From a virus: 64,000 nt of DNA. The notes under the pieces were generated by a model that saw only the letters and a list, made by a program, of their open reading frames with translations, did not search any database and was not told the origin of the DNA. The position numbers were made by a program, and so were the translations under genes. The DNA lies in the IMG/VR virus record IMGVR_UViG_3300045988_089718, positions 1 through 64,000 of that record. One strand, written 5' to 3'. Positions 11,674 to 12,190 of the stretch are shown one piece after another. Each line of letters begins with the position of its first letter. Within the stretch, counting starts at the first letter, position 1.

Positions 11674-12152
11674 CGAAAATCGGGTTGGTTTGTATTCTAA
11701 GTATACATAGATGCATGGGTTGCACCCGACTGGTAAAAGAATATTAATTAACTAATGTTGTTTATTAGTTAGATTAAGAAGAATATATCAAACAAATGCA
11801 ACCAACTTGGGGGATACCTATATAGTCGCGAATATTATAGGGCAGATTGATAAGAAATGGAAACAATGAGCTAGGGTAATCTAGTAAACCTCTAGGAATT
11901 GTGAACGAAAGTTTCGAAGTACGTTTAATTCGTAAGTCCCCTACTGCGAAGTTTCAATCGTTATACCTAATTAGGGAAAAGAGAAGTTACCTATATAATT
12001 GCAAGTATGTAGGACAGGTGATAAGGCGAAAGATAACACAATATAATATTGCAGGTGAAGGCTTTCTAGCATTAGTTATCTAAGTAGTTGAAGTACGTTC
12101 GATTCGTATTACTTCTCCAAAGTCTTTGACAGACTGAAATGCCAGGTTTCAT
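11674..12152 (+). ncRNA. Candidate large structured non-coding RNA (about 480 nt) directly 3' of tRNA-Leu
   Basis: No credible ORF; the 60-aa ORF 11901-12083 has no upstream signal. GC and purine content higher than flanks. Internal repeat GAAGTACGTTyrATTCGTA at about 11913 and 12088. Ends at a strong terminator hairpin at 12153-12190. Confidence 0.4.
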
Positions 12153-12190
12153 AGGAGTATATTAACTAATTAGTTAGTATACTCCTTTTT
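12153..12190 (+). terminator. Rho-independent terminator
   Basis: AGGAGTATATTAACTAATTAGTTAGTATACTCC palindrome followed by TTTTT. Confidence 0.7.

Follow-up and report, generated by a model that had tools for sequence, protein, structure and literature searches.

Two tandem tRNA-shaped RNAs with covarying self-complementary loops between a tRNA-Leu gene and a terminator in a viral genome

The stretch of viral DNA considered here (positions 1-64,000 of the record IMGVR_UViG_3300045988_089718, hereafter the window, 64,000 nt in all) contains a tRNA-Leu gene followed by a gap, 11675-12190, for which an initial annotation had proposed a single large structured non-coding RNA (ncRNA) of the GOLLD or ROOL kind. 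The gap is modular and consists of several parts rather than of one such RNA. Its core is formed by two conserved RNAs of ~135 nt, encoded on the + strand ~173 nt apart and alike over their whole length, which are under selection at the RNA level, contain tRNA-like modules and carry a covarying self-complementary loop (Table 1). As a whole, the initial observation is partly confirmed. The tRNA gene does lie directly before the gap, and the gap does lack a convincing open reading frame (ORF): nothing credible is found from 11675 up to a start codon at 12218, and the longest candidate, a 60-amino-acid ORF starting with GTG (11901-12083), spans both RNA units in a region where the indels of relatives are not multiples of three. 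The two internal repeats that had been noticed, at 11916 and 12090, are real; they are 21 nt each, belong to a far longer duplication and correspond to the T arms of the two homologous units. The hairpin and T run said to close the gap are present, at 12153-12186 and as the TTTTT that follows, but the hairpin is near-perfect rather than perfect, with 15 stem pairs according to a terminator scan and two 17-nt arms of 94% complementarity according to a repeat scan. Composition was ranked against equal-sized windows of the 64-kb stretch. The announced rise in G+C is genuine but modest: the gap has 0.344 (88th percentile), the 2-kb flanks have 0.264 and the window as a whole has 0.301, and the announced purine enrichment does not hold, the value of 0.553 being the window mean (51st percentile).

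The two units are built on one plan. Each is closed by its terminal helix, from which a single A leads into an 8-bp hairpin, P2, with a palindromic loop, and each possesses a T arm close to its 3′ end. Compared with a canonical tRNA, the units have the acceptor-like helix, with 6-8 pairs that covary, and a T arm of consensus GUACG-UUYRAUU-CGUA with G53, U54, A58 and C61 and an invariant four-pair core; they have neither a D stem of 3-4 bp with its G18-G19 loop nor an anticodon stem-loop, and the palindromic hairpin stands instead of the D arm. The fold of each unit is cloverleaf-like and closed by its own terminal helix. In unit 1, the P2 loop holds the only TCGCGA of the 64-kb window, and hairpin H3 presents an invariant CUAG within a loop of 12-13 nt, UAAU(U)CUAGUAA. 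A longer H3 helix (CAAU/AUUG) was rejected, CAAU changing to CAAC without compensation. In unit 2, the central domain ranges from almost nil, in RNAs of 97-102 nt, to ~90 extra nt, in an RNA of 192 nt, and the length changes over this range of 97-192 nt are not multiples of three. Readings of GGUGAUAAGG as a K-turn, a box C/D element or an anti-Shine-Dalgarno sequence were also discarded, since unit 1 has CAGAUUGAUAAG instead and no conserved partner motif is seen. The 3′ end of unit 1, ...C72-A73-CUG, resembles the tRNA ends of the phage, ...A73-CUAU; neither the phage's own tRNAs nor the units encode CCA.

Table 1. Features of the tRNA-Leu locus, with window positions
Feature	Positions	Strand	Sequence or pairing	Basis or remark
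tRNA-Leu(tag)	11592..11674	+		ARAGORN; Rfam tRNA, 52 bits; upstream neighbour, probably co-transcript
Element X, 134-nt hairpin-rich spacer	11675..11808	+		Fold compared with shuffles; clade-specific
Unit 1, tRNA-shaped RNA of ~135 nt	11808..11943	+		Minimum-free-energy fold, homologues, covariance model
Unit 1 terminal helix	11808-11815 with 11936-11943	+	UGGGGGAU with GUCCCCUA	
Unit 1 P2 hairpin, 8 bp	11817-11824 with 11833-11841	+	CCUAUAUA...	
Unit 1 P2 loop	11825-11832	+	G-UCGCGA-A	
Unit 1 conserved junction	11843-11854	+	CAGAUUGAUAAG	
Unit 1 hairpin H3	11871-11895	+	Loop UAAUCUAGUAAA	
Unit 1 H4, GAAA-tetraloop hairpin	11899-11917	+		
Unit 1 T arm	11919-11935	+	GUACG-UUUAAUU-CGUAA	
Inter-unit spacer, 37 nt	11944..11980	+		Sequence
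Unit 2, tRNA-shaped RNA of ~138 nt	11981..12117	+		Fold, homologues, pair counts
Unit 2 terminal helix	11981-11988 with 12110-12117	+	GAGAAGUU with UACUUCUC	
Unit 2 P2 hairpin, 8 bp	11990-11997 with 12006-12013	+		Same design as unit 1
Unit 2 P2 loop	11998-12005	+	A-UUGCAA-G	
Unit 2 conserved junction	12015-12024	+	CAGGUGAUAA	
Unit 2 helix S2	12025-12027 with 12087-12089	+	GGC with GUU	Closes variable central domain 12028-12086
Unit 2 T arm	12093-12109	+	GUACG-UUCGAUU-CGUAU	
3′ trailer, 35 nt	12118..12152	+	AGUCU...AGACU (12121-12135); GAAAU...GUUUC (12136-12150)	
Intrinsic terminator, 15-17-bp hairpin then UUUUU	12153..12191	+		Terminator scan; inverted repeat

Relatives were gathered by scanning IMG/VR and public metagenomes for sequence patterns and then applying nhmmer, which gave 210 units in 137 loci (73 homologues of unit 1 and 137 of unit 2), almost all from human-gut assemblies and on contigs of ~100-225 kb. 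The tandem of unit 1 and unit 2 occurs in 73 loci. Among the matches listed for two short patterns, GTACGTTNNATTCGTA and TAGGRCAGRT...GATAAG, most were due to chance, and these patterns were abandoned. Comparison of homologous regions in related phages, which the initial annotation had advised in search of covariation, supports the paired elements. It was carried out on two alignments, A2 (the spliced core, 59 distinct sequences) and A3 (unit 2, 74 distinct sequences), with the partner strand slid out of register as a control. In A2, 93.9% of the alignment cells are paired, against 35-52% with the slid partner, and both partners have changed in six of the eight terminal-helix pairs, with exchanges of the type GC/AU/UA. 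Within the T arm, neither the four inner pairs nor U54/A58 ever vary, in contrast to loop positions 56-57 and the outermost pair. In A3, pairing reaches 93% of the cells, and both partners have changed in 22 pairs, compared with 5-7 for the slid control. Each of the three S2 pairs covaries there, with 99.5% of the cells pairing; tabulated directly, S2 is compatible in 72 of 73 sequences, and its middle A faces U in all 18 cases out of 18. In the unit 2 central domain, compensatory changes also occur in hairpin Pa and in the long arm, Pb (A3). Covariation therefore supports the eight-position terminal helix, the 8-bp hairpin in the D position and the 3-bp S2, next to a T arm that is invariant and canonical. 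For a further candidate helix, S1 (GGUG/YAUC), pseudoknotted with S2, 97% of the cells are compatible, with one-sided changes only.

The many G-U pairs fit the + strand only, and their abundance indicates that selection acts at the RNA level on that strand. The homology of the two units is also recovered by a covariance model, R1, built from relatives of unit 2 without any unit 1 sequence: unit 1 scores 62.7 bits (E 1.7e-14) and unit 2, whose sequence is in the seed alignment, 127.5 bits. Throughout the window, R1 is significant at the two units only, and the second and third of its 3 best sub-threshold matches are real tRNAs.

The P2 loop is the most distinctive part of the structure. Its 8 nt read purine, self-complementary hexamer, purine in almost every copy, with six perfect hexamers (TCGCGA, TTGCAA, TCCGGA, TCATGA, TCTAGA and TTATAA) and the wobble forms TCGTGA and TTGCGA. 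When complementarity is counted as the 'pairs' 1/6, 2/5 and 3/4, 97-98% of the distinct sequences are self-complementary, and both 2/5 and the adjacent 3/4 covary in A2 and in A3, so that the palindrome changes while self-complementarity is kept, as would be the case in a homodimer. Pairing of the hexamer within one molecule is impossible, because positions 3 and 4 are neighbours and a 2/5 pair would leave just two bases in its loop; what is selected must therefore be pairing between two copies. The same argument from covariation has been applied to the symmetric kissing loops of OLE and GOLLD, alongside cryo-electron microscopy of those RNAs (PMC12286853). In 70 of 71 loci, the hexamer of unit 1 is not that of unit 2, and one and the same hexamer may be found in unit 1 of one phage and in unit 2 of another (TTGCAA and TCGCGA swap). 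Nearest-neighbour duplex energies of the three common loops amount to -5.9 to -10.3 kcal/mol for self pairing versus +0.7 to -3.8 kcal/mol for cross pairing.

These palindromes could in principle be a feature of the DNA, either a site for a dimeric DNA-binding protein or a by-product of template-switch mutation, by which imperfect inverted repeats become perfect, and would then be silent on RNA dimers. P2 and its loop indeed form nearly one 24-nt DNA palindrome, and the hexamers are restriction-site-like. Such an origin is nevertheless very improbable, since a protein site would keep its sequence, yet at least six palindromes occur. On either side of the hexamer, purine continues to face purine in all but four truncated copies, an arrangement that speaks against both a simple DNA palindrome and the mutational perfection of an inverted repeat; the G-U pairs of P2 and the difference between the units of one phage point the same way.

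The resemblance to known RNA families was explored with cmscan and Rfam 15, over the whole window at gathering score and over 11500-12300 at E ≤ 10 with permissive filters. No family matches the gap, GOLLD, ROOL, HEARO, OLE, raiA, group I and group II introns, tmRNA and Y RNA included. The GOLLD, ROOL, HEARO or intron match that the initial annotation had advised looking for is thus absent from the region even at E ≤ 10, and the degenerate group I intron put forward as an alternative finds no Intron_gpI match in 11500-12300 at that threshold. What remains at E ≤ 10 is noise far below threshold (MicF, rli52, tRNA-Sec and a plastid untranslated region). The search is sensitive enough, because the same scan recovers a true group I intron (63744-63971) and a tmRNA (24026-24358), besides 14 matches to the tRNA model elsewhere in the window. 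A search of 11500-12300 against the GenBank phages of INPHARED matches the tRNA-Leu part only, and no deposited phage record thus carries the units. A description of the family is absent from Rfam 15 and from full-text literature searches; a 2023 catalogue of ~8,500 candidate phage RNAs from IMG/VR may list fragments of it anonymously (PMC10690425).

The tmRNA and Y RNA families were also considered on structural grounds. In nearly all sequences, position 3:70, which is column pair 6-80 in A2 and 6-198 in A3, is G-C, and the 102-nt forms leave no room for a reading frame; since they possess neither a G3-U70 pair nor a tag reading frame, the units are not tmRNAs. Nor are they YrlA RNAs, because the RNA ends lie in an acceptor-like helix and not in a Ro-binding stem; no TROVE-domain protein is found among the 20 largest ORFs of the window.

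Whether the units could be unusual decoding tRNAs (intron-bearing, expanded, or amber suppressors reading with the CUA of H3) or decaying tRNA pseudogenes has to be weighed against the same data. The T arm, the acceptor-like helix, the CUA in the H3 loop and the existence of odd phage tRNAs, such as a 91-nt tRNA-Trp in the window, lend this idea some appeal. Related huge phages recode stop codons, which counts in its favour. It is extremely unlikely all the same: an anticodon arm with a 5-bp stem and a 7-nt loop is missing, neither ARAGORN at its default thresholds nor the Rfam tRNA model gives a call, and a pseudogene would not hold compensatory changes and palindromic loops over 137 loci. 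The window gives no sign of TAG or TGA recoding, its ORF cover of 81% gaining 1-2 points when either codon is read through. An amber suppressor based on the CUA of unit 1 was dropped because the RNA has no anticodon stem-loop and the window shows no trace of recoding. An intron-containing tRNA was dropped as well, since the ARAGORN calls appear only at lowered thresholds, are mutually inconsistent and are judged spurious.

The distribution of the parts among relatives bears on whether they belong together. A tRNA-Leu gene precedes the units in a subset of the related loci only (6 of the first 28 examined), and wherever it does so element X accompanies it. Unit 1 often begins ~8 nt after the stop codon of a protein gene with no tRNA nearby, and in most relatives the gene before it belongs to a paralogous small-protein family of multi-copy type. 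A unit 2-type RNA stands alone in at least 61 loci with at least 300 nt of upstream sequence present. In divergent clades, the next ORF follows the RNA at ~30 nt without a terminator. The modules are thus separable, and the RNA is tied to no one neighbouring gene. This distribution decides against one ornate RNA of ~500 nt across 11675-12190, a new relative of GOLLD and ROOL. The stretch between tRNA and terminator is continuous, ORF-poor and structured in all its parts, and what the initial annotation proposed is correct in so far as it is conserved, structured, non-coding and next to a phage tRNA gene. A single molecule is hardly probable, however, because element X is confined to ~19 loci, unit 2 type occurs alone in 61 and unit 1 is often without a tRNA nearby; each unit is closed by its own covarying terminal helix, and no Rfam family matches.

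Cis-acting functions represent another class of explanations, in which the RNAs would serve as punctuation for RNase P and RNase Z, as stabilisers of an mRNA 3′ end, or as a leader or attenuator of the downstream gene. The proximity of unit 1 to a stop codon (~8 nt), that of divergent units to the next start (~30 nt) and the terminator after unit 2, which in the window lies 28 nt before the next gene, are compatible with functions of this kind. They are nonetheless distinctly unlikely. Punctuation needs an acceptor/T minihelix only and leaves unexplained the palindrome, S2, CAGGUGAUAAGG and the two orthogonal paralogues; moreover, the repeat scan reveals no alternative antiterminator pairing. 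The 5′ leader mentioned in the initial annotation is unlikely in particular, because the downstream gene differs between loci while RNA and terminator are kept, and because divergent clades are without any terminator.

Taken together, these observations are best accounted for by two tandem, paralogous, non-decoding, tRNA-shaped stable RNAs that are processed as tRNAs and each form a kissing-loop homodimer, a reading to which we give a probability of about 0.55. Processing, dimerisation in the cell and the role are inferred. Transcription would run along the + strand, with the units at the end of a co-transcript that begins in tRNA-Leu or an mRNA and stops at the terminator, and host tRNA enzymes would excise each RNA, with RNase P acting at the 5′ end, followed by 3′ trimming and CCA addition. 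Excision of the tRNA type is the most likely because of the 7-8-bp acceptor-like helix and the canonical T arm (G53, U54, A58, C61), and CCA addition is expected because the units, like the phage's own tRNAs, encode none. Some clades leave no terminator or promoter room around the RNA, and the short distance to the next ORF in the divergent clades, without a terminator, argues for excision. In these RNAs, the 8-bp hairpin takes the place of the D arm, and S2 closes a variable purine-rich domain at the place of the anticodon arm, with no anticodon loop. Two copies of one RNA would then pair through their P2 loops into a symmetric dimer displaying two acceptor/T-arm modules, each unit pairing only with itself because units 1 and 2 carry different palindromes. 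Together with the conserved purine-rich junction, such a dimer may, in the role that we prefer, mimic tRNA toward a tRNA-binding factor of the host or the phage, and the RNAs would act as a decoy, a sponge or a scaffold in the infected cell.

Several observations weigh against this reading. Neither ARAGORN at default thresholds, whether introns are allowed or not, nor the Rfam tRNA model recognises the units, so that processing by RNase P is only assumed. The terminal helix is ambiguous in its register, its outer pair and its pair 7:66 at the inner end each failing to form in many sequences, and many double changes split only the two paralogues or a few clades, which means that independent events are fewer than the cell counts suggest. 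Folds of single units are not significantly more stable than those of shuffles (z ~ -1.3). Four unit 2 copies of 97 nt (L287, L245, L296 and L310) are without the palindrome, which is replaced by TTGAAA or TTGCAG; they are also without the central domain, their flanking purines have given way to a G-C pair, and they look like decaying copies. Finally, no partner protein or conserved neighbour gene was found, the flanking proteins being without known function.

A more specific variant supposes an obligate symmetric homodimer that mimics tRNA, with the two orthogonal palindromes as 'addresses', and that traps or re-targets a dimeric tRNA-recognising factor, possibly a defence nuclease with which the host cleaves tRNAs, or an enzyme of tRNA processing. 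This variant is speculative and on the whole rather unlikely.

Outside the units, element X is shared by ~19 loci, with an identity of 92-96%. Its place between tRNA-Leu and unit 1 is constant, and it has no second copy in the window. Its paired ends abut the 3′ end of tRNA-Leu and the 5′ end of unit 1, and it is more stable than shuffles (z = -3.1 to -3.6, 0-1 of 200 shuffles being as stable). One of its hairpins, UCUA-[A-GUAUAC-A]-UAGA at 11696-11711, has a purine-flanked palindromic loop; in relatives, the loop reads G-AUAUAU-A or a longer (AU)n, a weak piece of evidence because AU repeats can arise by slippage. The inter-unit spacer contains a 10-nt palindrome, CCTAATTAGG (11965-11974). 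Spacers fall into classes of 36-38 nt and 56-58 nt, with one locus at 50 nt, and the palindrome is doubled in the long class. The trailer is kept in the main clade and gone in the divergent clades. The terminator after unit 2 is kept in the main clade with small changes in stem and loop; the terminator scan found 2 sites, against 0.5 expected from shuffles.

These additional palindromes are relevant to the possibility that the RNAs self-assemble without being decoys, either as building blocks of a larger RNA or ribonucleoprotein, as a small counterpart of ROOL, GOLLD and OLE, or as a component of a phage machine, comparable to the phi29 pRNA. The CUAG of unit 1 H3 and the palindromes of the spacer and of X would then join dimers into larger complexes. 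ROOL and GOLLD, often found near tRNA islands and forming homo-oligomers via kissing loops (PMC12286853), make such a role conceivable, as do the P2 loop itself, the invariant CUAG and the extra palindromes of X and the spacer. It remains doubtful on present evidence: CUAG, being invariant, makes a covariation test impossible, the 102-nt short forms of unit 2 have one palindromic loop only, no packaging or structural gene adjoins the RNAs, and similarity to ROOL, GOLLD or OLE is absent.

None of the neighbouring genes points to a target. Pfam and PHROGs searches of the flanking proteins returned nothing of known function. The ORFs 9856-10305, 10310-10747 and 12573-13028, which surround the RNA locus, match phrog_13450 (function not known); in the ORF 11200-11532, VYKV and EGYHSY were recognised by eye as motifs in common, without a match to a PHROGs family. 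A scan of GTDB genomes gave one real match, a phage contig binned into a 'Bacilli' metagenome-assembled genome, with no prophage and no host assignment. The only cues to the host come from brief stretches of DNA that match phages of Prevotella and Bacteroides, and from start codons that lack an evident Shine-Dalgarno motif.

Other tRNA-related features were recorded in passing. The tRNA-Trp(cca) gene of the window (5292-5382; 91 nt) has a long extra arm, unusual for tRNA-Trp, that holds ACGAAAGTT, a 9-mer identical to part of H4 in unit 1 (11901-11909); the common 9-mer may hint at a descent of the units from an expanded tRNA. Of the tRNA-like genes at 4379-4459 and 4890-4971, one is called by the Rfam tRNA model only (40 bits) and the other by ARAGORN with a 2-nt 'anticodon (ta)'. 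About 130 nt past a unit 2-like RNA, a T-arm-like CTAGGTTCGATACCTAG is present in L099 (7390-7540) and at the same place in L224, L267 and L274; ARAGORN makes no call on this site in L099 or its counterparts, and it may represent another tRNA-like RNA, from a family distinct from that of the units. The tmRNA of the window scores 65.5 bits in Rfam, and ARAGORN gives its tag peptide as ARVINMTPAYQAAA. The group I intron (71.6 bits) comes directly after, and overlaps the end of, a LAGLIDADG endonuclease-like ORF (63067-63798). Elsewhere, an ORF at 35947-37500 resembles the nicotinamide phosphoribosyltransferase NAMPT and another at 37979-38788 has a weak phosphoribosyltransferase domain (Pribosyltran, below the Pfam cut-off), so that 35947-38788 possibly includes a module for the salvage of nicotinamide adenine dinucleotide (NAD+). 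An SPFH/flotillin protein is encoded at 26639-28192.

Among known systems, the closest analogue by gene position is the pair RNAC (species 1) and RNAD (species 2) of phage T4, in which a tRNA gene is likewise followed directly by two tandem small RNAs of ~120-140 nt: tRNA-Arg, rnaD of 119 nt and rnaC of 139 nt. rnaC, too, has a canonical T arm, CCGGGUUCGAAUCCCGG, situated toward the 3′ end, and it has long extra hairpins. The T4 RNAs differ by the absence of any visible palindromic loop, by the phylum of the host and by the phage lineage, and homology was found neither with nhmmer --max at E ≤ 10 nor with R1 when its filters were off. Their role is still not known (PMC3014915, PMC9697503). Unexplained structured RNAs often adjoin phage tRNA genes, and RNAC and RNAD have been without a known function for ~50 years. 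If the units are decoys directed against tRNA-targeting defence or processing enzymes, RNA mimicry would join phage tRNAs as a form of counter-defence; if they are obligate dimers, they would provide, in principle, a small tractable relative of ROOL and GOLLD and a hint at the job of RNAC and RNAD.

ROOL and GOLLD are RNAs of phages and prophages, often located near tRNA islands; together with OLE, they homo-oligomerise partly by symmetric kissing loops with covarying palindromes (PMC12286853). All three are longer, at ~580-800 nt or above, lack tRNA-like ends and fall into unrelated Rfam families that have no match here, whereas the RNAs described here are tRNA-shaped and have 97-192 nt; ROOL and GOLLD are 4-8 times larger than the units and unrelated to them. 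The purpose of the ROOL and GOLLD cages is not known, and a family of small members (~100-190 nt) offers a handle on the RNAs of tRNA islands.

At the level of the loop itself, the counterpart is the dimerisation initiation site of human immunodeficiency virus type 1, a 9-nt loop with a 6-nt palindrome between unpaired purine flanks, whose palindromes vary and remain self-complementary. The loop of the units differs in having 8 nt with one purine per side, and in belonging to a small phage RNA for which the dimer is predicted. An acceptor-like helix and a T arm combined with non-tRNA domains, and handled by tRNA enzymes, are characteristic of the tRNA-like domain of tmRNA, of the YrlA Y RNAs and of the 3′ tRNA-like structures of plant viruses. 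The units are distinguished from tmRNA by the absence of G3-U70 and of a tag reading frame, and from the plant-virus structures by not lying at the 3′ end of a viral genome. YrlA and other bacterial Y RNAs have an internal tRNA-like module and a nearby rsr gene, and their ends form a Ro-binding stem; the ends of the units form the acceptor-like helix instead. Stable RNAs of phage tRNA islands and tRNA mimics are thus known kinds, and what is new here is a covarying, paralogue-specific loop of predicted dimerising function.

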